64,000 bases of DNA from a candidate division WOR-3 bacterium (GCA_039802205.1 JBDRWD010000001.1:13658-77657); one strand, 5' to 3'; positions 18,057-40,246 are shown, numbered from the stretch's first letter. Program-made: numbers and translations. The notes: generated by a model from the letters alone, not told the origin.

Positions 18057-20039
18057 TTACCGCACTATCGTCATCGTCTTGGTCGCAGTTCCTTCAGGTG
18101 TTTCAACCCGCACAAAGTAAATACCATTGGGAAGTTCCTGATTGTTTAAGTTGAGTGTATATGTGCCTGCTGATTTAGACTCGTTCACAATATTGTCAAC
18201 CAATCTGCCACTTGCATTATAAATAGATACCTTCACAATGCCCGGATTCTTTGTGGTATATGAAACTTTTGCAGACCCATTTGAGGGATTGGGGGAGAGG
18301 GCCACATCTATCCGCGCAGTAGGTTTTTCTTTGTGCTCCCAGATTCCATAATTCTCATCCGGGAATGATAATCTTGGGTCAGCATCGCTGGAGTAGGTAT
18401 AATATCGCATCCATACAATGGCTGGGAACCATTGATTGTGTGTAGCATTCCACATCGTTGTCATATCTATTTGATAAAAACCATAAGGCCTGCCAAAGTC
18501 GAAAGAAGAAACTAAGGTATCTATTACATTTGCACCGACAACTTCAAAGTAATTGGGATCATATTTGGACATGTTAGCAAGGGCTGTAGAATCATTGAGA
18601 GTTCGTAAAGCAAAAGGAATATAATAGTTGTCTCCATTATGGTCTTTATAGTAAGACAAGTGATAATAATCTGGTCCGGTGTTATTACCCGCATACTCAC
18701 CATCACAGGATATTACCGGAGTTTTCGTCATAACGACATCACCATCAACTAATTGTGATATAAAATTTCCACCGCTTGCCATCCGGAACAGTATTCTAAC
18801 ATTATAATCAGTTGATGTCCAAGGATATCCGAATGCAACAACAACACTTGGCCGATTATAGTTATGAGATGCTGACACATCAATAGCGTCAATACTTTGC
18901 GAATGCACATATTCGGTCTCTATCCAGGAACCTGGTGCACCTGAGATGCTTTCCAAGATGACAAGTGAATTATTAGACTTTCTGGCAACGAATACAAATT
19001 TATCGGTTGATTGGGAAGCAGCACCTTGGGCACCTTTGGGTATTGCATACACGCTTGATGTCCATGAGGAAGTATAAACAGTTGACCAATTCTGCCCCTG
19101 ATCCGTAGATTGTGCAATTACCACATTACCCGTGGTATAATTATGGTAAATGCAGCAGATACGATGCTCACTCCAAATATGTTCAACACTGAGGTGTGGT
19201 TGTATACAAAAATCGCTTGTGTTTTCTACATTGGAGATCATAGTTTGTGAAGAATCATTCAAGTTGCTAAAACGTCTGACCCATATATCACCTGAAGTAA
19301 TCGATGAAATATATGTATAGGCTTCATACAAATACTGATTCCCAGGGTCGATCACCACGTCAAAAACAATACGATCAGCAGTTGTCGAACCATATGAATG
19401 CCATAAACTCCAAGTATTTCCGTAGTCTGTTGAACGCCAAAGAAACATTGTATCATTACCAATCTCTGAAGTTGAGTTGGAAGCGGTTACGAATACATAA
19501 TTGTTGAAAGAGGCGACTGATGGAGTGATGTGATCTACAAGACTTAGATCAACATAACCCATGTCCCAGCCTGTTCCCTGTCTATTATCATCACGGTCAA
19601 ACCATTTTGGGTTATTAAAATTACTGCCACTTTCTTCATATTCGTTCTTTGGAAGTGTTTTTTCTCTTTCTAAATATTTAATATAGTTTTCTGCCTCGTT
19701 CAAGATATAGGTGAATTCAGCATAATTCCAATCGGTTGGTTGCGATTGTAGTTTTTGCCACAGTTTTTGGAGCCTAATTCTGTATCCAACATATTCATTT
19801 TCTTCAGCAGAATAAACATCTTCGGGTAATCTGGGTAACAGGTTATTAAACCTCCGCTGAAGATCCGTGAGTGTAGACTGTTTTTCATTTATTGACATAC
19901 CTTGCCATTCTTTTGCAAGGGCATTCTTTTCGCTTGTCCAGCCGGTAGGCACTATGATAACATTATCATCTTTTTCTACCGCAAAAAGCGGCGCCAACAA
20001 TATTACAAATAACACTAATGCCTTAATTGTTCTTTTCAT
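18057..20039 (-). CDS. secreted BNR/Asp-box repeat protein with a T9SS C-terminal sorting domain
   Basis: Signal peptide (MKRTIKALVLFVILLAPLFA). Asp-box motifs (STDYGNTWS, STDQGQNWS). C-terminal Por_Secre_tail-like segment (…PNPSNGSAKVSY…VSIYNASGRLV…NGIYFVRVETPEGTATKTMTIVR). Confidence 0.7.
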   Translation of the reverse strand: MKRTIKALVLFVILLAPLFAVEKDDNVIIVPTGWTSEKNALAKEWQGMSINEKQSTLTDLQRRFNNLLPRLPEDVYSAEENEYVGYRIRLQKLWQKLQSQPTDWNYAEFTYILNEAENYIKYLEREKTLPKNEYEESGSNFNNPKWFDRDDNRQGTGWDMGYVDLSLVDHITPSVASFNNYVFVTASNSTSEIGNDTMFLWRSTDYGNTWSLWHSYGSTTADRIVFDVVIDPGNQYLYEAYTYISSITSGDIWVRRFSNLNDSSQTMISNVENTSDFCIQPHLSVEHIWSEHRICCIYHNYTTGNVVIAQSTDQGQNWSTVYTSSWTSSVYAIPKGAQGAASQSTDKFVFVARKSNNSLVILESISGAPGSWIETEYVHSQSIDAIDVSASHNYNRPSVVVAFGYPWTSTDYNVRILFRMASGGNFISQLVDGDVVMTKTPVISCDGEYAGNNTGPDYYHLSYYKDHNGDNYYIPFALRTLNDSTALANMSKYDPNYFEVVGANVIDTLVSSFDFGRPYGFYQIDMTTMWNATHNQWFPAIVWMRYYTYSSDADPRLSFPDENYGIWEHKEKPTARIDVALSPNPSNGSAKVSYTTKNPGIVKVSIYNASGRLVDNIVNESKSAGTYTLNLNNQELPNGIYFVRVETPEGTATKTMTIVR

Positions 20040-20392: not shown

Positions 20393-23300
20393 TCATTTTC
20401 CTTTAATCTCTTCATATAGTTTTATTGTTTCTTCTGAAGGTTGACAGTTATACTCTCTTTTAAAAAGATCCGCGCATTTCTTATATTGCTCTATTGCCTT
20501 CGATTTTTCATTGTTGAGAAGATATGTCTTCATTAAAAACCTATGTGCCTCCTCATCAAGCGGGTCTAAAATTAAAACTTTTTGTAGATTTTCAATTACC
20601 TCTTCAAATTTCAGCTTTTTTAGATAGATTTCGGATAATAAAAAGAGCGCCTGGCGATATTGGCGATTTATCTTTTCGCGTAGTTCTTCAACCCATCGTC
20701 CATAACAATCCTCAAGAAAGGTGCCTTTATAAAGTTTTAATGCATCCTTTAATTTCTCTTCGGCAATGTGAATCTTACCCTGCGAATATAAAATTTTAGC
20801 ATCATTTAACAAGCCAGAAAACTCAATTGCATCAATCCATACATTATCAAGGAAATAAACACCATCTTCATAACAAAAGTAATCCTTTCCTATTATTTTC
20901 TTTAACTCAGAAAGATATACATGAAAGTTGTTTGTAACCTGCTTTTTAGAAAATTCAGGCCACAAGAATATTCCGATTTCGTCCCGGGTTAATCTTTTTC
21001 CTTCAATTTTTGATATTAATAAAATAGAAAAGAAATCTCTCAATTTCTGCCAGTTTAGAAGTTTTATAGAGAGATCCTCCGAATTTAATTTTTGAATATC
21101 CATCCGGCCGAATGTAAATATTCTCAAAATCGGTGGGTTTATCTTTTTAGTATCAGGTTCTAATTTTCCCACCCAGCCCAACATTTTAAATTTTTGGACA
21201 ATAAATTTCAATTTTCTCAAGTGCTCCCTTCTATAAGGATTATTTTTTAACAATTTAGAGCAGAAATATAACATAAAGACTAATTCCGAATAATCTTTTT
21301 GCTCTTCGGCAAGGATTAATGATTTTTTTATTAATGCATTTCTGGTTTCTTTTTTGTTATTTAAGCAAGCAATACCCGCGATTAAATAATAGAGTGGATG
21401 TTCATTATATTTTTTACCGAATACCTTTTTAATATCTTCAAATAATGTTTTTATTTCATCTACCTTGTTAAGAACTGACAGAATTAAACCTTCGTATACC
21501 ATCAGGGTAAATTGGAGGTTCTGATTATGCATTCCTTTAGCAAGTTCAATGCCTTCCTTAAATAGCTTTAATGCCCGTTCGTATTCGCCTATAAAAAACA
21601 AAGCAATACTGTAATATTTTAATAACCAGATTAGGTCTGATTGGTTATTTGTCTCCTGGCATAATTTAATACCTTTTTGGAATTCTTCAACCGCTTGATT
21701 AAAATACCCCTGGAATAGATAGCAGGCACCAAGATTAAGACAAGCCATTATCTGTTCCCTAATCATTCCACTCTTAATACTATAGTTCCGATGTTGCAGC
21801 AGATATTTTACACCTTCTTCAAAATCACAATTATTGATATAAGAAATTCCAAGATTTCCTTGGGCTGATGCGACGAGAGAAGGACTACCTATCTTTTCTG
21901 CAATCTGTAAGGCCAGCATCCGGTATTCAATCGCCTTATTATATTCACTACGAGTGTTAAAGATTGAGCCTAAAAGATTGTAGATATAGTATTGCGAAAT
22001 AAGAGGAGTTTTTTTCTCTATTTTGTTTTTCAATGTAAGTCCTATGTCAAGTGCACTATCTAACTCACCAAGATACTTTAACGCAAACGCCTTATTGGTC
22101 ATAATATCAAAAACTAAATCACTATAGGCATCCAATTTTAATTTCTTTATTTGGGCTAATATTTCATCGGATCTCCTTATTGCTTCATTATATTTTCCTG
22201 CTCGGACCAATCCATTGATAAGAATTGAATATACTTCTAAGAACCGTCTTTTTACTGGTATTTTTGCATCCTTGTAGAGTTTTAAATATTTTTCTGCCAA
22301 TTCTATGGCATCATTGTATATACCGATTTTTAGTTTAATATGAGAGTAATGTGCGATAATATCCAATAATTTTTTGATTGAAAATTTTTTTATCTTTTCT
22401 GCAATATTTAAGCCCTGCCCTAAAAATTTTCCCGCGCGTGTGAAATCTCTTAAGTTTTCAGAAATTTTAGCATTGTGCAACAGATAATCTACCATCCAAA
22501 CTTTGTAAATTCCTGCTTTATCAAAATGTAACAGCGCATTATATTTGTCATTTTTCTTCGCAAAAAATTCGCCCATTTTTTTATGTAAAGTGAGTTTTCT
22601 ATTTTCAGGAATATTGTCATAAATTACCTCTCTGATAATAGGATGACTGAAAACATAATTTTCTTGCTCTTTTCTTATGAGACCCCTGCGTGTTAGGTCA
22701 TTTAAAAGATTAATCTTCAATTTTAAAATGGACGAATTAAATCGTTCGCCAACAACAGAAGCAGTCTCAAGAAATTCAATCTGTTTTTTACTCAATCCTG
22801 CAAATCTTATTTTCAAAATATCGGGTATACCTTTAAAAACTGGTATTTTTTCGTAATTTGGTATGGTGCACCATCTTTCTTCTAACTCATTATAATAAAT
22901 AACACCCTTTTCTAAGAGGGTCAACAAATATTCTTTAAGAAAGAGGGGATTACCGTCTGTTCGAGTAAACAGCCAATCAAAAAATTTCCCTTCTAAATTG
23001 TTGGCAAAAATGATTTCATTTAAATGTAATATCTCATCTTTACCAATATTTCCGAGCGTAATTTTTATTAGATTTTTTGATTGTAATTTATATATAATTT
23101 TAGCATTGTCTGAAGTCAAGATCATTAAAATTGGCAACCCATCCAAACGATTTATGAGTTGATTCAATAAAATAAAGACATCTTCTTCAGCATTTTGAAT
23201 TTCTTCTAAAATAAAAATAATGAAAGAGAATCGGGAAAGTTTTTCTATGAATTCGATGAAATGGTGAGACATTTCTGAGAAATCAGTTTTTTTAGACACA

Positions 23301-23680
23301 GGTTCATACGGAAAATAAACTTTTAATGAAGGTATCACCTCCGAATAATTATTATAAATTTCCCGACCAATAACCTGGACGATTTCCCTTATTTGACGTC
23401 CTGCTCTATTTAGGTAATTATTTATAATTTCCGTGAATAATAAATTTGCCGAAGTTCGGGGTTGTAATACGATATTAAAAGTAATCGGGGCATACTGAAT
23501 GTTTTTTAAAAATTCCACCACCAATCTGGTTTTGCCAATACCGGGCTCACCACTAATAACAACACATTTTCCCTGGTAATTAAAAGCCGATTGCAGATTT
23601 TCCTGCAAAATTTTTAACTCGTTGTTTCTGCCAATAAAAGGAAGTTCTGAAAAATTTTTACTTTTATTGGAGAACATCAT
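20393..23680 (-). CDS. STAND-type signal-transduction ATPase with domain order AAA(AAA_16-like)-TPR-wHTH-BTAD, the reverse of SARP/AfsR regulators
   Basis: N-terminal Walker A (VISGEPGIGKTRL) with a Walker B/hhhhE-like stretch. A long TPR array. A C-terminal OmpR-like start (ILRIFTFGRMDIQ) followed by a BTAD-like helical region (…ALKLYKGTFLEDCYGRWVEELREKINRQYRQA…LDPLDEEAHRFLMKTYLLNNEKSKAIEQYKKCADLFKREYNCQPSEETIKLYEEI). Confidence 0.7.
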   Translation of the reverse strand: MMFSNKSKNFSELPFIGRNNELKILQENLQSAFNYQGKCVVISGEPGIGKTRLVVEFLKNIQYAPITFNIVLQPRTSANLLFTEIINNYLNRAGRQIREIVQVIGREIYNNYSEVIPSLKVYFPYEPVSKKTDFSEMSHHFIEFIEKLSRFSFIIFILEEIQNAEEDVFILLNQLINRLDGLPILMILTSDNAKIIYKLQSKNLIKITLGNIGKDEILHLNEIIFANNLEGKFFDWLFTRTDGNPLFLKEYLLTLLEKGVIYYNELEERWCTIPNYEKIPVFKGIPDILKIRFAGLSKKQIEFLETASVVGERFNSSILKLKINLLNDLTRRGLIRKEQENYVFSHPIIREVIYDNIPENRKLTLHKKMGEFFAKKNDKYNALLHFDKAGIYKVWMVDYLLHNAKISENLRDFTRAGKFLGQGLNIAEKIKKFSIKKLLDIIAHYSHIKLKIGIYNDAIELAEKYLKLYKDAKIPVKRRFLEVYSILINGLVRAGKYNEAIRRSDEILAQIKKLKLDAYSDLVFDIMTNKAFALKYLGELDSALDIGLTLKNKIEKKTPLISQYYIYNLLGSIFNTRSEYNKAIEYRMLALQIAEKIGSPSLVASAQGNLGISYINNCDFEEGVKYLLQHRNYSIKSGMIREQIMACLNLGACYLFQGYFNQAVEEFQKGIKLCQETNNQSDLIWLLKYYSIALFFIGEYERALKLFKEGIELAKGMHNQNLQFTLMVYEGLILSVLNKVDEIKTLFEDIKKVFGKKYNEHPLYYLIAGIACLNNKKETRNALIKKSLILAEEQKDYSELVFMLYFCSKLLKNNPYRREHLRKLKFIVQKFKMLGWVGKLEPDTKKINPPILRIFTFGRMDIQKLNSEDLSIKLLNWQKLRDFFSILLISKIEGKRLTRDEIGIFLWPEFSKKQVTNNFHVYLSELKKIIGKDYFCYEDGVYFLDNVWIDAIEFSGLLNDAKILYSQGKIHIAEEKLKDALKLYKGTFLEDCYGRWVEELREKINRQYRQALFLLSEIYLKKLKFEEVIENLQKVLILDPLDEEAHRFLMKTYLLNNEKSKAIEQYKKCADLFKREYNCQPSEETIKLYEEIKGK

Positions 23681-23959: not shown

Positions 23960-26839
23960 CTACCTGATAATCGTCATTATTTTGCTAATGGTCGTTTCCG
24001 AAGATTCCAATCGCACAAAATAGATACCGCTTGGCAATTCATTGTTCATTAATTTAATGGTATGTTTTCCAGCCGGAATAACCTCATCGATTACATTCTT
24101 TATCAACCGTCCAGTTATATCGTAAAGCGAAATTTTGATTCTGTCTTCTTCTTTATTCGTATATGTAAGAGATGCCCATTCAGAACTGGGATTGGGTGTA
24201 ATAATGAACGAAATATTTTTGGATTGTTCTGATTCATTTTCACCTATTCCAATCTGCCAATCATTTCGGTCAAAATAAACTCCGCCATAGACCGGTGAAT
24301 AACTCACATAGACACTTCCATAAACTCCATTGCCTAGGTATTCAATTGATGGTTTTACAGCGTTTCTTGGACGATAATCACCAAATTGCACGGGTGTTGA
24401 CCAGGAACCGTAATAATCACGCCAGGTATAACGGAATCTGCAGCTTGAACCGTCTCCATAAGCATAGATTATTGCCTGACCTCCATTCATCTTCGCAGTT
24501 ATATCAGGGCAGCAAGCAGAAATGGTTGTATCTTCTCCACCCGGAATTCCCCAGTACCAGGATGCACCACCATCATAAGAAGTTTCATATTTGCAGTAAT
24601 AAGGGACCGCAGCACCGGTGCATTCAAAAACAACCAGGATTGTATCTTTATAGGCACCGATTGCAGTGAATTGTGAATTTGCACCAGCAGATAAACTCAA
24701 TACTTTTATGTTAGCACTGTAACGGTAATAATTCGCCTTGGTCACAGTTATTACGACCGTGCCTGAATACTGTGGGGTAATCGGAATGTTTACTGGTGCA
24801 CCCGTAGCAAGTGCCGCACCAATAATCTCTCCATTGGCAGTTAGTGCAATCACTGACCCACTCGTTGCAGTAACTGTGAAATATGTCTGACCCGGTTCAA
24901 TTGTCATTGGATGGTTTACAGTCAGACGTAATGGCGTTCTTGAATAGAGTGTAATAAAACAATCACCGAAATGGTGAAATTCACGCCAGACAAGGCTTTT
25001 GCTTTGTGGGTTTCCAGGCCAGGATGAGGCAGAGAGATAATATTTCCCCGAGGTCATTGCCAGACAAGGTCTCAGGTCACTTGAACCGATTATCCTACCA
25101 AATGTTGGATAACCAGGGTCAAACTGTGGCCAGAGACAATCATAGATTCCCCAGATATATGCGTCATTGCAGAATGATGGGCTTACTGTAGAAGCACAAT
25201 TAACACCCAATGCGCCACACTTTCTACGATGGAATTTTTCAGAAAAGCACTCATAACTCCACTGATAGCGCCCGGTCAAACAATTTGTTGAATAAACAAA
25301 AGGGGGAAGTTGGTTTGTAAGACCATCAAGGTCACTGTTTGTAAAAGAAGGATGTTGCCACCCGAATTCATAACCATGGTCGCGGTGTTGAACCAGAAAT
25401 GCACCGGAATTTATTGCATTTCTTATTCCGATATTATTGCCATTGCTCCACCAGGTTGAATCGTGCTGATTTAGCGTGTCATCAAGCCATCCGACATTAT
25501 ACCAGTATTGAACAACTGAACGTGTGTTTGTCGCAGTTGACCAAGCACAACCTATACTCGGCGAACCACCCGAAACTGTATATTGGCGATTTGGTGATTT
25601 GCCAAGATTGTGGATAAAAAATCCTCGAATTACCTCAGAACACAGTTGGAACCATCGGTCTGTTTCCCAGGAACAGGCGACAAGGGGGTTATTATAGAAA
25701 TTTGTAGAAGTTGGTGGATTTCGTTCATAATTAAGAAATTTATGTATTATTGTATCCAATTGGGCATTATTCTGGGCACAGATACGGCCAATGTGCAATT
25801 CAGGCAATGTATCATTATTGAAATCTACATACCAGTTATCAGAGACACCATCAGGGTAGGGTGGAAGAGCAAAACTCGGTGATGTTATTCCATATACCCT
25901 TCCAGACGATGGATAATCAGATAAAAACAAGACCGCAACTGGCGCTGGATTCCAGGTGTTATAGGCATTCCGCAGAAAATTTTTAATGCTTGCCGAATCA
26001 GAACCGCCGACTTCGCTCAGGGTATACACTTCAGTAGATATGCCCTGGAGTTTACGCCATCTCTTTATTGTATCTGCCCAGGCTTCAAATGTTGCATCGT
26101 TGGGAACAATTATGATATATTCATAACCAGCACGGCTATTAATTCTTTCGGGTGAATAGAAATCAATCTTTGGCAGTGAATTATAATTCAGAATATGATT
26201 TTCAAGTATGGGCTCCCAGAATCTGCTGCGAAGACGGTCTTCGCCAAAATGTCCTGTGCCACCGATAAAATCAATCTTTATTTTGATGTCTTTATATACA
26301 ATCAAATCTTTTGTCACCGGGTTATACTGAAATGGTGTAACACCAAGTAATACAACATCAACCCCTCTGATCTCCCGAATAGGGGAGAGGCAGACCGGAC
26401 TATTCGGGTAATACTCATTTTTGCTATAGATATTCATATCTTTGACATAACGCATTGGTTTATTATCACTATCCATAGGGATATTAGGCGCTGGTGTCAC
26501 TTCAATATTATAAAATGTGTCGGTTCGTGTTTCAAGGATGGTCAATTTTGGAGTAGAACCTTCTGGTATTGCGATATATCTTCCAGTTCCGAGAATATTA
26601 GGTGCGCCTTCTTTATTTGGTAAAAAGAATCCTGGCACACTAAATGTTTTAGTTATTACACCATCAACCTCTTTTTCTTCTATCACCATTTCATGCATAC
26701 TGAAGATTATCTCAACCCCCTGGGGAGTCTCTTTGATTAAGTTGAATAGTGGATACCTTCCCCAGTTGTCTTTAATCTTTATCACCTCACCAGAGTTAAT
26801 GCTAATGATTGACATAATTATTATCGCAATTCTATTCAT
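23960..26839 (-). CDS. secreted gingipain-like cysteine peptidase (peptidase C25 family) with a BNR/ACCPD accessory domain and a T9SS C-terminal sorting domain
   Basis: C25-like core (…YEYIIIVPNDATFEAWADTIKRWRKLQGISTEVYTL…VAVLFLSDYP…). Candidate catalytic dyad His (LVQHRDHGYEFGW) and Cys (VYSTNCLTGRY). C-terminal …PNPSSEWASLTY…ISLYDITGRLI…SGIYFVRLESSETTISKIMTIIR. Confidence 0.6.
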   Translation of the reverse strand: MNRIAIIIMSIISINSGEVIKIKDNWGRYPLFNLIKETPQGVEIIFSMHEMVIEEKEVDGVITKTFSVPGFFLPNKEGAPNILGTGRYIAIPEGSTPKLTILETRTDTFYNIEVTPAPNIPMDSDNKPMRYVKDMNIYSKNEYYPNSPVCLSPIREIRGVDVVLLGVTPFQYNPVTKDLIVYKDIKIKIDFIGGTGHFGEDRLRSRFWEPILENHILNYNSLPKIDFYSPERINSRAGYEYIIIVPNDATFEAWADTIKRWRKLQGISTEVYTLSEVGGSDSASIKNFLRNAYNTWNPAPVAVLFLSDYPSSGRVYGITSPSFALPPYPDGVSDNWYVDFNNDTLPELHIGRICAQNNAQLDTIIHKFLNYERNPPTSTNFYNNPLVACSWETDRWFQLCSEVIRGFFIHNLGKSPNRQYTVSGGSPSIGCAWSTATNTRSVVQYWYNVGWLDDTLNQHDSTWWSNGNNIGIRNAINSGAFLVQHRDHGYEFGWQHPSFTNSDLDGLTNQLPPFVYSTNCLTGRYQWSYECFSEKFHRRKCGALGVNCASTVSPSFCNDAYIWGIYDCLWPQFDPGYPTFGRIIGSSDLRPCLAMTSGKYYLSASSWPGNPQSKSLVWREFHHFGDCFITLYSRTPLRLTVNHPMTIEPGQTYFTVTATSGSVIALTANGEIIGAALATGAPVNIPITPQYSGTVVITVTKANYYRYSANIKVLSLSAGANSQFTAIGAYKDTILVVFECTGAAVPYYCKYETSYDGGASWYWGIPGGEDTTISACCPDITAKMNGGQAIIYAYGDGSSCRFRYTWRDYYGSWSTPVQFGDYRPRNAVKPSIEYLGNGVYGSVYVSYSPVYGGVYFDRNDWQIGIGENESEQSKNISFIITPNPSSEWASLTYTNKEEDRIKISLYDITGRLIKNVIDEVIPAGKHTIKLMNNELPSGIYFVRLESSETTISKIMTIIR

Positions 26840-27860
26840 CTTTACCTCCCGAATTTATAATCAGTTCATTGTTAGAGATGGACTCAAATAAGCCATAGCC
26901 TAATCCGTAAATTCTGAGTCGGTGGTTAAAATCTATGTATGAGATAAGCATCCAGTAATGAGAGAAACCAACATTCTTGCAGATATCAATACCACGGTCA
27001 GCATCAGCGATACCGGTGGCAATTGAACTCCAGGATATTGCCTCAGGGTCATCCCAGAGCAGGCGCAAAACTCCGTCGTTTATGATCGCCCCACAATAGA
27101 GTCTGGTATTTGTGTCGTCCTGGTCACCGATCAATACTATTTCATCAATTGAATCCGGTGATGTTACGGAAAAAACCTCTACATAGTACGAGCCATTACT
27201 AAAACTATCCCTCTGGGCATCGGTTGCCCGGAAACGGTATAGATATGCCTGATTCTGGGCAGCGGGTCTTGAGAAACATACATAGCAATGATTTGCAACG
27301 ATTGCCGCACTCAATGTCTTTATACGATATGAATATGTATAATAGTAGCGTTCATACCAGGTATAACCACCATTGGTTGAGTAATTAACAGACCAGCCTG
27401 AATTAGAACCATCCCGACAGAGTGCGATTACAAACAAATTTCCGGTAGCACGATGAACATCGAATGCTACCGCATATACCGAATCGCGGTTTCCGATTCT
27501 TACATCCTGTGCCCAGCGATTATCCGATTTTGTTTTTATTGGTTCTTTCCAGTGAATTTCTAATCCGAGGTCTTTAGTAGTGATGAATGGTTCGATTTTA
27601 GAAAATTGGTTAATTGCTGATTCATAATTTCCACTATTCCAGAGTTCTTCAATGGTTTTTATGAGTAGCTTTGTTCCATACGATTCATCAGATTCAAATA
27701 GAAACTTAATCTCGGAATTATTCCTTTCTTCATCATTCATTCGCTCCAGAGTTTTATAAATATGTTCAACACAATTTTCTCCGTTAGCAAACAGCACTTT
27801 CAGGGCGAAGAAAACTAACAAGAAAATATAACTCAAGTTTGTAATTTTGGTGATAATCAT
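26832..27860 (-). CDS. secreted BNR/Asp-box protein; paralog of the N-terminal half of the 27905..29407 product, with no CTD
   Basis: Signal peptide. W(A/G)xDVRIGN/D motif and an Asp-box (STNGGYTW). Homology extends over about 230 aa to the neighbouring gene. The 3' end overlaps the C25 gene start by 8 nt. Confidence 0.55.
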   Translation of the reverse strand: MIITKITNLSYIFLLVFFALKVLFANGENCVEHIYKTLERMNDEERNNSEIKFLFESDESYGTKLLIKTIEELWNSGNYESAINQFSKIEPFITTKDLGLEIHWKEPIKTKSDNRWAQDVRIGNRDSVYAVAFDVHRATGNLFVIALCRDGSNSGWSVNYSTNGGYTWYERYYYTYSYRIKTLSAAIVANHCYVCFSRPAAQNQAYLYRFRATDAQRDSFSNGSYYVEVFSVTSPDSIDEIVLIGDQDDTNTRLYCGAIINDGVLRLLWDDPEAISWSSIATGIADADRGIDICKNVGFSHYWMLISYIDFNHRLRIYGLGYGLFESISNNELIINSGGKDE

Positions 27861-27904: not shown

Positions 27905-29407
27905 TCATTTTTGAATTATAGCAATCGTTTTTGTTAATGTTCCTTCAGGTGTTTCCATTTTAACAAGGTAGATACCATCCGCCAGTTCTTTTCCATTTAG
28001 CGTTATTGCGTGGGCGCCAGCATGTTTTCTTTCGTTTACAATAGTTCTTACTAATCTACCGGATATATCATAAAGTGAAAGTTTAACATTTCCCGTTTTC
28101 TTAATTGAAAAAGAAATGTTTGTTATGCCATTTGAAGGATTGGGTGAAATCTTGATTTTATCCGATTTTGCACTATAGATTTCATTCTCTGCAATTCCTG
28201 CCCAGTCATTACGGTCAAAGTATGCCGCACCATAGATTGGAGAGTAACTCACATAAATACAACCATAGATATCATTGCCAAGATATTCAATCGCGGGCTT
28301 TATATTGTTTGGTGGTTGGTAGTCACCAAACTGCACCGGTGTTGTCCAGGAACCATAATAATCGCACCAGGTATATCGGAATCTGCGGCTACCACTTGTT
28401 CCATAGGCGTATGCGATACCTTCGCCACCATTGTCTCGTGCGGCAACATCAGGACAACAGGCAGCGGTAGTGGTGTCAGTCAGATTGTAATAAAACCAGG
28501 TATTGCCACCATTATAGGATGCTCCATACTGGATGTAATATGCTACTGCATAGCCACTCCTTTCGTAAACCGTTATTGCTGTATCATGATATGCGCCAAT
28601 CGAAGTAAATCGCGAATTCGGACCCGCAAAAATTGTGGAAAGGCCGGTTCGGTTGCCGTAATAGTCAAACCCATCAATTTGCAGATAGTCATTGTTCTTG
28701 ATATAAGAGGCGAAGGCATAATAATTGGAATATCCTTCATTGGTGCAGGCATCAAGCCCCCGACTGGCATTTGTAACGCCGGTTGAGATTTCATACCAGT
28801 TCACACCCGCAGTGTCACTGTAGAAATATTTTAAGGAGCCATTTTTAGTTATAGCAAATAGATTCTGGTATTGATCATCGAAGTCGTGGTCGCTGACCAG
28901 TGCTATTTCTTTAATAGTATCAACGGGATTTGTGACGACCAAGTCTATATATTGAGCACCGTTATTAAAGTTAACCTGTGCACCATCAGATACACGAAAT
29001 CTAAAAAACCGTACCACATGTGGCGTCCAACTATTCGCGGCAAGATAGTAATGATTACCTGTAGTAGTGAGGCTGAGTTTCGGATTCGGCAGAATTCCAT
29101 TTGCAACAAATGGGTTAGCTTTATAAATCCACGATGCACCTCTATTTGTTGAAAAATACATGTTGATTGAGGTTTGATTACTGAAGTAGTAGTAACACGC
29201 AGCCATGATATGTGAAGTTGGTCTATGTATGTCAAGGGAAACGCAACAGAGAGAGTCTATATCACCTATGCGCACATCATTTCCCCATCGGTCCTCAAGC
29301 GGAACAGGATGTGGTTGGTCATATTCTGTTGGTTCATTTGATTCTGCTCGGGCAGTTACAAAAAATCCCGACAGAAAAATTATTGTACAGATTTTTTTGT
29401 TATTCAT
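27905..29407 (-). CDS. secreted BNR/Asp-box protein with the conserved ACCPD domain and a T9SS C-terminal sorting domain
   Basis: Signal peptide (MNNKKICTIIFLSGFFVTARA). Asp-boxes (STNRGASW, SYNGGNTW). A roughly 150-aa block nearly identical in pattern to the C25 protein (FTSIGAYHDT…ACCPD…RFRYTW.DYYGSW.TPVQFGDY…FDRNDW). CTD …ISPNPSNG…LSLYDISGRLV…DGIYLVKMETPEGTLTKTIAIIQK. Confidence 0.65.
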   Translation of the reverse strand: MNNKKICTIIFLSGFFVTARAESNEPTEYDQPHPVPLEDRWGNDVRIGDIDSLCCVSLDIHRPTSHIMAACYYYFSNQTSINMYFSTNRGASWIYKANPFVANGILPNPKLSLTTTGNHYYLAANSWTPHVVRFFRFRVSDGAQVNFNNGAQYIDLVVTNPVDTIKEIALVSDHDFDDQYQNLFAITKNGSLKYFYSDTAGVNWYEISTGVTNASRGLDACTNEGYSNYYAFASYIKNNDYLQIDGFDYYGNRTGLSTIFAGPNSRFTSIGAYHDTAITVYERSGYAVAYYIQYGASYNGGNTWFYYNLTDTTTAACCPDVAARDNGGEGIAYAYGTSGSRRFRYTWCDYYGSWTTPVQFGDYQPPNNIKPAIEYLGNDIYGCIYVSYSPIYGAAYFDRNDWAGIAENEIYSAKSDKIKISPNPSNGITNISFSIKKTGNVKLSLYDISGRLVRTIVNERKHAGAHAITLNGKELADGIYLVKMETPEGTLTKTIAIIQK

Positions 29408-39800: not shown

Positions 39801-40246
39801 GCTGGGGTTTTGGGGTAGCCCGAATACATTGAATCTACTTCAACAATAGTAGCATCACCAATTCGGGCATAGATGTAAACCTTCCTGGTGCCGGTACTTA
39901 CGATTCTTTCCCACACCTGGATAACCGGGCGGGTAGCGGCAAGAGGCGTTGCCAGTTGAATACTACCATTGTTCACCCCCCAAACATTATCAGTATCAAC
40001 TTCCACATTATAGCCACGTAAAGTTCCATTCCATAGCAACCGCTGACGATAAACGCTATTACGACCACTACCCCACCTCAAATCTTCCCAAGCAATATAC
40101 GCGGTGGTATCCCTGGCCGCGACCGATGGATATATCTCACGCCGGTATCCTTGATCATTATCCCAGACATAGATAGAATCGATTCCAAAGAGGGTTAAAG
40201 GCAAGAACATCAATAGCCAAACAAAATTTCTCATATTACCTCCCAA
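36839..40246 (-). CDS. very large (1135 aa) secreted protein with a T9SS C-terminal sorting domain; function unknown
   Basis: Signal peptide (MRNFVWLLMFLPLTLFG). C-terminal …VHPNPFTDKIEIFL…EIYDVSGRIV…QGIYFCKFTALEKSEVVKIIYLK. Confidence 0.65.
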   Translation of the reverse strand: MGGNMRNFVWLLMFLPLTLFGIDSIYVWDNDQGYRREIYPSVAARDTTAYIAWEDLRWGSGRNSVYRQRLLWNGTLRGYNVEVDTDNVWGVNNGSIQLATPLAATRPVIQVWERIVSTGTRKVYIYARIGDATIVEVDSMYSGYPKTPAMDCRDNGEFVVSFTYYYPPQNVYAIYHKRYNIGGNFIHGSYIEPNLRMRGRSVSRCAFCDSGYVVVYVDSATTGDSLRSIYLQYRGISSNIIDTKIKVSRPGTDGRNELAPDVAVNQNGFVVVTWTYEYSATDPDVYARTFQMRPGLDTLMPVSPSDFAIANSTAPEFGPKVTVFPNNDYMIVYTKETNYNKGVYAKVSISGTLKPECIINNDQKPQAWDQYAGDVACRWNDTCIVAWMNLPDTNISKSYLAREVFCRTYYRAPSSTYGILEKSSEVIDPTPRGPGWLWYYDDENYDDPLTVDWNEDPIDEEDSVYLPIDSAIVDQFDEFNQVRVKYHLTVRDTLPRSQKSGRGLSSYKQVIVNLGFRLNDTPAGVISTEDQYELINYINSGKPILLTGNDFGFMYNGTTLFEKFHANYVSDGQPFDIGNIDTLYGQPGTFAQNETLAYQYRKEADNYVDIISPRPEAKLILADWETEKEWLAGRCVGWGNYWKDLRDNGSTIYCSFSPNGIKDRHHPHTAQEFIRRCLGFLGMVCPPEPITAIYCSTNTATEGSVILRWRVVSDDSLKESAAGPYKLKFSRKKITSEVAFNDSCEEYYQKWNTKDSVVGSWYRVVLEGLPPMDTLIFALKVSDEDTLWGALGAEPRAIVSGDSVTPHYLKVGSTSNPYGYVKDFSVKYEFLDRRAKNDTGTDYDSLFVTWDYPMNPPWFYVGFARCNLYTEGDLFIYVDTKPGGADSTVPYNGTSGRSAFQPVPPDSFKPDYCLIVDNGSTVVYKKYVSTKDGRGSWIDTTFYGRVCEDSVINNYLYTELYIPYNNMGYTAGNPFKLVVLMTQENTNYIINAFPIFNPLGTYKTIGQYYSWGSDGLTSGKVPARKSTIGIGETTFNPKKQIKNLKLAVHPNPFTDKIEIFLPTMEIPGCQASLEIYDVSGRIVKTFNLKSCRASLPTSVSWDGTDDKGEIVSQGIYFCKFTALEKSEVVKIIYLK

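Follow-up and report, generated by a model that had tools for sequence, protein, structure and literature searches.

The blades of a beta-propeller are, to our knowledge, almost always carried on a single chain. Propellers completed in trans, such as Sec13-Nup145C, Sec13-Sec31 and Seh1-Nup85, are eukaryotic, are encoded by unlinked genes and receive one donated blade (6+1). The Kordia lectin 6htn, Pizza3 and the WRAP fragments are two- or three-blade polypeptides that likewise need partners to close the ring. The present analysis concerns a 64,000-nt stretch of DNA from a candidate division WOR-3 bacterium (GCA_039802205.1 JBDRWD010000001.1:13658-77657), referred to throughout as the window, in which the gene for a 342-aa protein adjoins the gene for a C25 peptidase that carries a conserved block of unassigned sequence. 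The best explanation of this arrangement, to which a probability of roughly 0.6 is assigned, is a two-gene propeller split 4+3, with docking in trans onto the C25 peptidase and a later exchange of the block. Compared with the Sec13 and Seh1 systems, the proposed split is approximately 4+3, bacterial and encoded by overlapping genes with a protease between the halves. The lectins and designed fragments are homo-oligomers of near-identical blades, whereas the window would provide two differentiated pieces from adjacent genes.

BNR/Asp-box propellers of the sialidase superfamily (Pfam BNR and BNR_2) have a common motif and fold with the block family, which reaches no gathering threshold of these Pfam models. 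Canonical sialidases possess six blades; relative to the GH33 sialidases, the block family models with seven, and its identity to sialidases is 10-18%. The C-terminal propeller of CylK (7ron) and two seven-bladed lectins, PLL and BP39L, show only 9-11% identity, a fold-level likeness, and the modelled propeller has lectins and glycan-active enzymes among its structural neighbours at the level of the fold only. The peptidase itself is closest in organization to the gingipains RgpA and Kgp of Porphyromonas gingivalis, with which it has in common the C25 propeptide, the catalytic domain, the immunoglobulin-like (Ig-like) domain and the C-terminal sorting domain (CTD) of type IX secretion systems (T9SS). 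In gingipains, the protease and non-catalytic adhesin modules are held together non-covalently on the surface. The adhesins there belong to the haemagglutinin/cleaved-adhesin domains and are released from the polyprotein that also contains the protease, in contrast to the putative two-gene propeller of the window.

The block and its propeller family

Two proteins of the window carry the block, namely the C25 peptidase and a 500-aa protein, BNR-500. In BLASTP, the only alignment obtained paired aa 715-959 of C25 with aa 258-499 of BNR-500 (E 3e-85), and a tblastn search of the window with the block found these two sites alone (Table 1). The original prediction had pointed to a strikingly conserved block in the two proteins, and both its coordinates (right to within ~10-35 nt) and the contrast in conservation hold, with 62% identity in the block (91/145) against 41% in the linker and CTD (39/96). 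The similarity is not compositional, since it runs the full length of the block, W, Y, R, D and G are invariant at many sites, and a profile made from it retrieves 185 protein clusters. The functional constraint that had been suggested is likewise supported by a dN of 0.29 against a dS of about 2.8, which is saturated, and by a dN/dS of 0.06 between the blocks of the C25 peptidases of the window and of the related locus L001. As dS between the two window copies is saturated, their similarity is old and has been held by selection, and a recent duplication of the block was rejected.

Searches of the excised blocks against Pfam and NCBIfam returned nothing, even at E<=10, in agreement with the earlier view of the block as an unnamed domain, nor did searches with the whole proteins assign the block, or the region preceding it (termed the N-half), to any family. 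Pfam and NCBIfam covered nothing of BNR-500 outside its CTD and nothing of the 342-aa protein. The BNR model of Pfam scored up to 15.7 bits, its cut-off being 27, and sub-threshold BNR/Asp-box matches were present in 26 of 59 members. In searches of PDB sequences with a single block and with the block profile, only insignificant matches were obtained, while a word-indexed homolog search found nothing with a single block and four short fragments with a 40-sequence profile. With the block profile, HMMER was run exhaustively over 1.84 billion representatives at a threshold of E<=1e-3 and retrieved the 185 clusters mentioned above, 85 of them at E<=1e-10. The usual layout of the family consists of ~350 aa, the block, and ~96 aa of CTD. 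In 124 of the best 150 block proteins, the N-half profile has a match that immediately precedes the block, so that the conserved unit is the N-half (~210 aa) together with the block, ~360 aa in total. The 342-aa protein is related to this N-half, its aa 92-322 being 30% identical to BNR-500 aa 16-250.

In an alignment of 40 block sequences, the block divides into three units of ~48 residues, all of which close with a W (SYxGGxxW, RYxWRxYxGxW and YFDRSDW). The Asp-box motif (S-x-D-x-G-x-T-W), which in this superfamily lies between strands 3 and 4 of a blade, takes the form SYDGGASW within the block and STNGGYTW within the N-half, and its positions G44 and W47 are found in at least 90% of the aligned block sequences; beyond the Asp-box, hhalign of the block against the N-half detected no significant internal repeat. 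The family profile matches sialidase blades with an E-value of 6e-6, which, together with the sub-threshold BNR matches, places the family among the Asp-box propellers as a branch that has seven blades and is unannotated. Modelled with AlphaFold2 (AF2), the isolated block folds confidently into an open arc of three propeller blades. A fused chimera of N-half and block, a single chain with a multiple sequence alignment dominated by contiguous homologs, was modelled with 28 propeller strands according to DSSP, equal to seven blades, and the block family accordingly takes a beta-propeller fold of four-stranded blades in these models. The best whole-domain structural matches of the chimera model were CylK, PLL, BP39L, integrin alpha and WD40, all of them seven-bladed proteins, and the identity of the family to any solved structure is 9-18%.

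In our reading of the model, blades 1-4 are supplied by the N-half, the fourth strand of blade 4 by the C25 segment VLSLS, and blades 5-7 by the block, and the conserved N-terminal DVRI strand of the N-half likely closes blade 7 as a "velcro" strand. In the model, the block thus makes up the outer strand of blade 4 and the three C-terminal blades of a propeller of the BNR/Asp-box type, whose seven-bladed family is uncharacterised. For annotation, the family is to be modelled as a propeller of ~360 aa and not as a unit of 150 aa. At block positions 22 and 35, Cys occurs in 81 (DTxxC) and 46 (xCRY) of 179 sequences, and the two might be linked in blade 5 by a disulfide common to the family; in the window, the C25 block has V and C there.

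Members of the family are, judging from their sequences, mostly T9SS surface cargo of WOR-3 and other candidate phyla of the Fibrobacteres-Chlorobi-Bacteroidetes (FCB) group. Several architectures depart from the usual layout. P0013 has the order C25, Ig-like domain, block and CTD; P0099 carries the propeller and then a C25 peptidase on a single chain, which supports a functional link between propeller and peptidase; P0136 consists of an S8 peptidase followed by a partial propeller; and in P0005 and P0106 a Kelch module, or CBM9 and BACON modules, stand after or within the block. In P0005 (block aa 358-485 and 831-843), the Kelch propeller (aa ~488-830) lies apparently within blade 7, as an AYFDRSDW-like strand matches again after it, which suggests that the propeller tolerates insertions of whole domains; P0017, P0090 and P0148 resemble P0005 in their length of ~950 aa. 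The gene for P0136 (L038 1-2215, GCA_004796375.1) is truncated by the start of its contig and encodes a subtilase (S8) with blade 4 of the N-half and the block at its C-terminus and no CTD, and may represent another protease-linked partial propeller. L032 contains an N-half-only open reading frame (ORF; 156-1160) and a block-only ORF (935-1867) that open a tandem paralog array and overlap each other in different frames, probably a frameshifted copy or an assembly error rather than a true split. Tandem paralog arrays are also present in L026 and L031.

Gene pairing and exchange of the block

In the C25 peptidase, the block stands without an N-half, and in the 342-aa protein, the N-half stands without a block, so that each chain has too few blades to close a ring. 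The split point coincides with the N-half/block junction of the contiguous family. The 342-aa protein comprises a signal-peptide-like N-terminus, a mostly helical region of ~90 aa, the region assigned to blades 1-4 (aa ~113-325) and an unconserved tail; its stop falls ~15-25 residues past the last N-half strand, and neither a block nor a CTD follows, the latter having been searched for with Por_Secre_tail and TIGR04183. The rest of the C25 chain is filled by Pfam domains, and further blades would not fit.

The TAG stop codon of the 342-aa gene (26834-26832) and the ATG of the C25 gene (26839-26837) lie such that the genes overlap by 8 nt, and a Shine-Dalgarno sequence, GGAGG (26849-26845), is located inside the end of the 342-aa gene, 5 nt before the C25 ATG. 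From this junction, the two genes appear to be translationally coupled, and the terminator-like hairpin past the C25 gene is consistent with one transcription unit that includes both.

This pairing is not confined to the window. An N-half-only gene encoding 342-404 aa is followed by a C25 + block gene, 9-25 nt on or overlapping, in 8/8 loci with a visible upstream gene: the window, L001 and L006 (WOR-3 metagenome-assembled genomes, MAGs), L013 (an uncultured-bacterium MAG), L017 (the Zixibacteria chromosome CP070813), L035-37 (contigs carrying P0013, counted once), and L039 and L041 (metagenome contigs). Two further C25 + block genes, in L010 and L040, have lost their upstream regions at contig ends and stand outside this count. 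In a scan keyed on the C25 Ig-like region, the N-half gene was found in none of about 50 related loci with block-less C25 genes. The spacing between the two genes is -8, 9, 9, 9, 11, 13, 15 and 25 nt across the pair loci and the frame varies, by which a conserved recoding event is disfavoured. A T9SS CTD was not detectable in three of the block-bearing C25 proteins (L013, L017 and L041), and the retention of the block in its absence links the block with its N-half partner rather than with the sorting signal. The Zixibacteria-type C25 + block proteins of L013 (5331-8282) and L017 (5802-8738) end in a Cys-rich repeated tail, GDVNGS..YNGLDITYGV, which replaces the CTD and is dockerin-like by eye, with no Pfam call at E<=0.01; both loci also contain a second, block-less C25 gene divergently upstream.

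Between the window and L001 (dS about 0.55), the orphan N-half has a dN/dS of 0.12, the orphan block one of 0.06 and the peptidase one of 0.10, and both split halves are under purifying selection. Identity between these two loci is 88% for the orphan N-half and 92% for the orphan block, compared with 56% and 75% for the contiguous N-half and block of BNR-500. In L002 and L003, the order of beta-helix gene, BNR-500, (regulator), CTD protein and MoxR is kept and the N-half/C25 pair is missing, which identifies the pair as a cassette.

The block of the window peptidase appears to have a different origin from that of its partner. The C25 blocks of the window and L001 are 55-73% identical to BNR-500-type blocks (window, L001-L005) and 46-51% identical to other C25-linked blocks, and in a nearest-neighbour resampling test performed separately on block and N-half, a BNR-500-type block was the nearer in 500/500 resamplings. 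For the window orphan N-half, in contrast, identity amounts to 48-53% with other orphan N-halves and to 32-39% with those of BNR-500, and BNR-500 was the nearer in 0/500. Diagnostic columns are BNR-500-like in 11 of 16 cases in the block and orphan-like in 15 of 22 cases in the N-half. The vicinal cysteines of the ACCPD motif, present in both window copies, occur in six of 179 blocks, namely those of four BNR-500 orthologs and of the C25 peptidases of the window and L001, all within one WOR-3 clade; other C25 blocks have ES at this position. Identity, resampling, diagnostic columns and the cysteine marker therefore agree on a block swap, in which, as read from these sequences, the C25 block of the window/L001 lineage has been replaced by that of the BNR-500 paralog ~1 kb away, by recombination or gene conversion. 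This replacement accounts for the 62% identity and the common cysteine pair. Of the domain shuffling that had been proposed as recent, the exchange of a module is supported and the recent date is not, given the saturated dS.

The cysteine pair had been noted as part of the conserved domain, and is better regarded, from its distribution, as a clade marker and not as a family feature or functional hallmark. ACCPD lies in a predicted beta-strand, the first of blade 6, and adjacent side chains in a beta-strand point to opposite faces; a metal or disulfide role for the pair was rejected because it is unconserved and lies in a strand. A phylogeny of the CTD was uninformative as to the limits of the swapped tract, the domain being short and fast-evolving. 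Compensatory or convergent change after the swap gave no clear signal, matches to the other group being found in two of 22 N-half and five of 16 block diagnostic columns, all of them conservative.

Proposed assembly in trans and the alternatives

We infer 4+3 assembly in trans from the fold, the co-linearity with the contiguous family, the strict pairing and coupling of the genes, and purifying selection. In the proposed mechanism, the 342-aa protein and the C25 peptidase would both be exported by Sec, after which the four blades of the former and the three-blade tail of the latter would dock in trans to form a single closed seven-bladed propeller. Strands would be exchanged at both seams, the C25 chain supplying the fourth strand of blade 4 and the DVRI strand of the N-half closing blade 7. 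Docking would tie the CTD-less partner to the protease and equip the latter with a non-catalytic binding module that its paralogs carry as one chain, and the partner might, speculatively, ride on the sorting signal of the protease as a T9SS piggyback. Later, in the window/L001 lineage, the three blades of the protease would have been overwritten by the adjacent BNR-500 block. The complete sequence of a heritable 4+3 split over overlapping genes with the protease between the halves, periplasmic reassembly in trans, tethering of the partner, possible piggyback, and the swapping of one half under purifying selection is considered to have even odds.

Several points weigh against this explanation. 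The chimera model is a fused chain and would therefore indicate compatibility rather than assembly. Designed three- and four-blade fragments of WD40 gave homo-oligomers and never seven-blade hetero-oligomers (PMC6805158). The halves in the window differ in ancestry, so that a strict interface must have tolerated the swap or adapted to it, and the co-occurrence of the two genes could partly reflect inheritance of one ancestral cassette.

Self-association of the orphan pieces, with the protease tail forming 3+3 or 3+3+3 assemblies and the 342-aa protein 4+4 assemblies as in oligomeric lectins and designed fragments, is the rather unlikely alternative that survives best. It leaves the perfect adjacency, co-occurrence and translational coupling of the two genes across phyla unaccounted for, as well as a split point exactly at the N-half/block junction of the contiguous family, and the blades are strongly differentiated rather than near-identical repeats.

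The original prediction had favoured an autonomous binding or adhesion domain of ~150 aa, a spacer before the T9SS CTD with the vicinal cysteines as a disulfide or metal site. The conservation of the block, its place before the CTD in both window proteins and its confident AF2 fold in isolation speak for such a unit, which is nonetheless improbable, as that fold is an open three-blade arc, the block is contiguous with four further blades in the 124 of 150 relatives, and the cysteine pair is restricted to six blocks of one clade. Placement before the CTD is not defining either, since relatives carry Kelch, CBM9/BACON or dockerin modules after the block or lack a CTD altogether.

It is more doubtful still, and indeed highly improbable, that the 342-aa gene is a relic of a propeller gene broken by insertion of C25, whose 3' end was taken over by the protease for its sorting signal, leaving the N-half without a role. 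The order N-half, C25, block-CTD does resemble the insertion of one gene into another, and the pair is missing from the syntenic L002 and L003. However, a dN/dS of 0.12 and 88% identity, against 56% for the N-half of the intact paralog, show that the N-half gene is not a decaying remnant; intact ORFs are kept in eight loci that have diverged to about 50% identity; and the block persists where no T9SS CTD follows. A programmed frameshift or readthrough that would yield one polypeptide with the C25 domain between blades 4 and 5 is scarcely credible, for although large insertions are tolerated (Kelch in blade 7 of P0005) and the gap of 9 or 15 nt between the genes is in frame at four loci, spacing and frame vary among loci, every C25 ORF has its own start and signal-peptide-like N-terminus, and a canonical Shine-Dalgarno sequence precedes the C25 ATG of the window.

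What is new here is the placement of the block as an unannotated member of a known fold class and the conserved two-gene 4+3 split around a protease. If docking in trans is correct, a conserved natural two-gene propeller would offer a rare test case for the tolerance of repeat folds to fission, domain insertion and module swapping, and would suggest a route by which CTD-less proteins join T9SS cargo. The family assignment provides a first structural handle on an abundant, unannotated family of surface proteins in WOR-3, Zixibacteria and other uncultured FCB-group lineages, and also a handle on the targeting of their gingipain-like proteases.

Locus layout and neighbouring genes

The window genome is that of a WOR-3 bacterium near the MAG QZM1.Bin.155. 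Four co-directional minus-strand genes, encoding the beta-helix protein, BNR-500, the 342-aa protein and the C25 peptidase, are followed downstream by those for a BTAD/AAA/TPR regulator of 1095 aa and a CTD protein of 660 aa. L001 has the same gene order; its identity to the window is 84-88% for the genes of the beta-helix protein and the C25 peptidase and 63-73% for those of BNR-500 and the N-half. The 959-aa protein is assigned to the Peptidase C25 (gingipain) family by its domain content: Propeptide_C25 (aa 25-191, E 5e-22), Peptidase_C25 (aa 241-626, E 6e-46) and the C25 Ig-like domain Peptidase_C25_C (aa 636-712, E 1e-9). The T9SS CTD (Por_Secre_tail/TIGR04183) scores 39.9 bits in the C25 peptidase and 48.0 bits in BNR-500, against a cut-off of 27.

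Table 1. Positions of the features discussed, counted from the first letter of the window.
Feature	Coordinates	Strand	Remarks
C25 peptidase gene	23960-26839	minus	959 aa
342-aa protein gene (orphan N-half)	26832-27860	minus	directly upstream of the C25 gene
BNR-500 (BNR protein) gene	27905-29407	minus	500 aa
Beta-helix protein gene	29612-31012	minus	466 aa
C25 peptidase proper	24698..26839	minus	Pfam domains and signal-peptide-like N-terminus
Orphan block in C25 peptidase, aa 715-862	24254..24697	minus	modelled as blade 4 outer strand and blades 5-7; Asp-box SYDGGASW
T9SS type A C-terminal sorting domain of C25 peptidase, aa 882-954	23978..24196	minus	PF18962, TIGR04183
N-half (modelled blades 1-4) of BNR-500, aa 38-257, contiguous with its block	28637..29296	minus	sequence comparison with the 342-aa protein
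Block of BNR-500 paralog, aa 258-403 (modelled blades 5-7)	28199..28636	minus	BLASTP, tblastn
T9SS CTD of BNR-500, aa 420-497	27917..28150	minus	Pfam
Junction of 342-aa gene and C25 gene	26832..26850	minus	sequence read directly; 8-nt overlap
Terminator-like hairpin and T-run, just past the C25 stop codon	23921..23938	minus	consensus scan only

The beta-helix protein is right-handed, with a lipoprotein-like N-terminus, and its gene is found directly upstream of BNR-500 in L001-L005 at 76-84% identity; it may be functionally tied to the propeller family. The regulator (20393-23680, minus strand), an AAA_16/TPR/BTAD protein of the SARP- or MalT-like kind, is encoded by the next gene downstream of that for the C25 peptidase. 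In L035 and L036, a comparable regulator is found immediately upstream of the N-half/C25 pair, and in L003 such a regulator stands between the BNR-500 gene and the CTD protein, though the pair is absent. The 660-aa T9SS cargo protein (18057-20039, minus strand) has a weak, sub-threshold match to BNR_2 (E 4.8e-5) and no detectable similarity to the block, and may be a further, different Asp-box propeller; its orthologs in L002 and L003 align with it chiefly in the CTD.

Antisense ORFs of 100-156 aa lie over both blocks (24295-24669, 28168-28470 and 28316-28786, all on the plus strand); they are unsupported and most likely by-products of coding-strand composition. Farther from the pair, the window contains genes for an adenylate/guanylate cyclase of 1238 aa that also has AAA_16 and TPR domains (32994-36710, plus strand) and for a 1135-aa protein (36839-40246, minus strand), the sole Pfam match of which is a FlgD_ig-like C-terminus and which may be a secreted surface protein.

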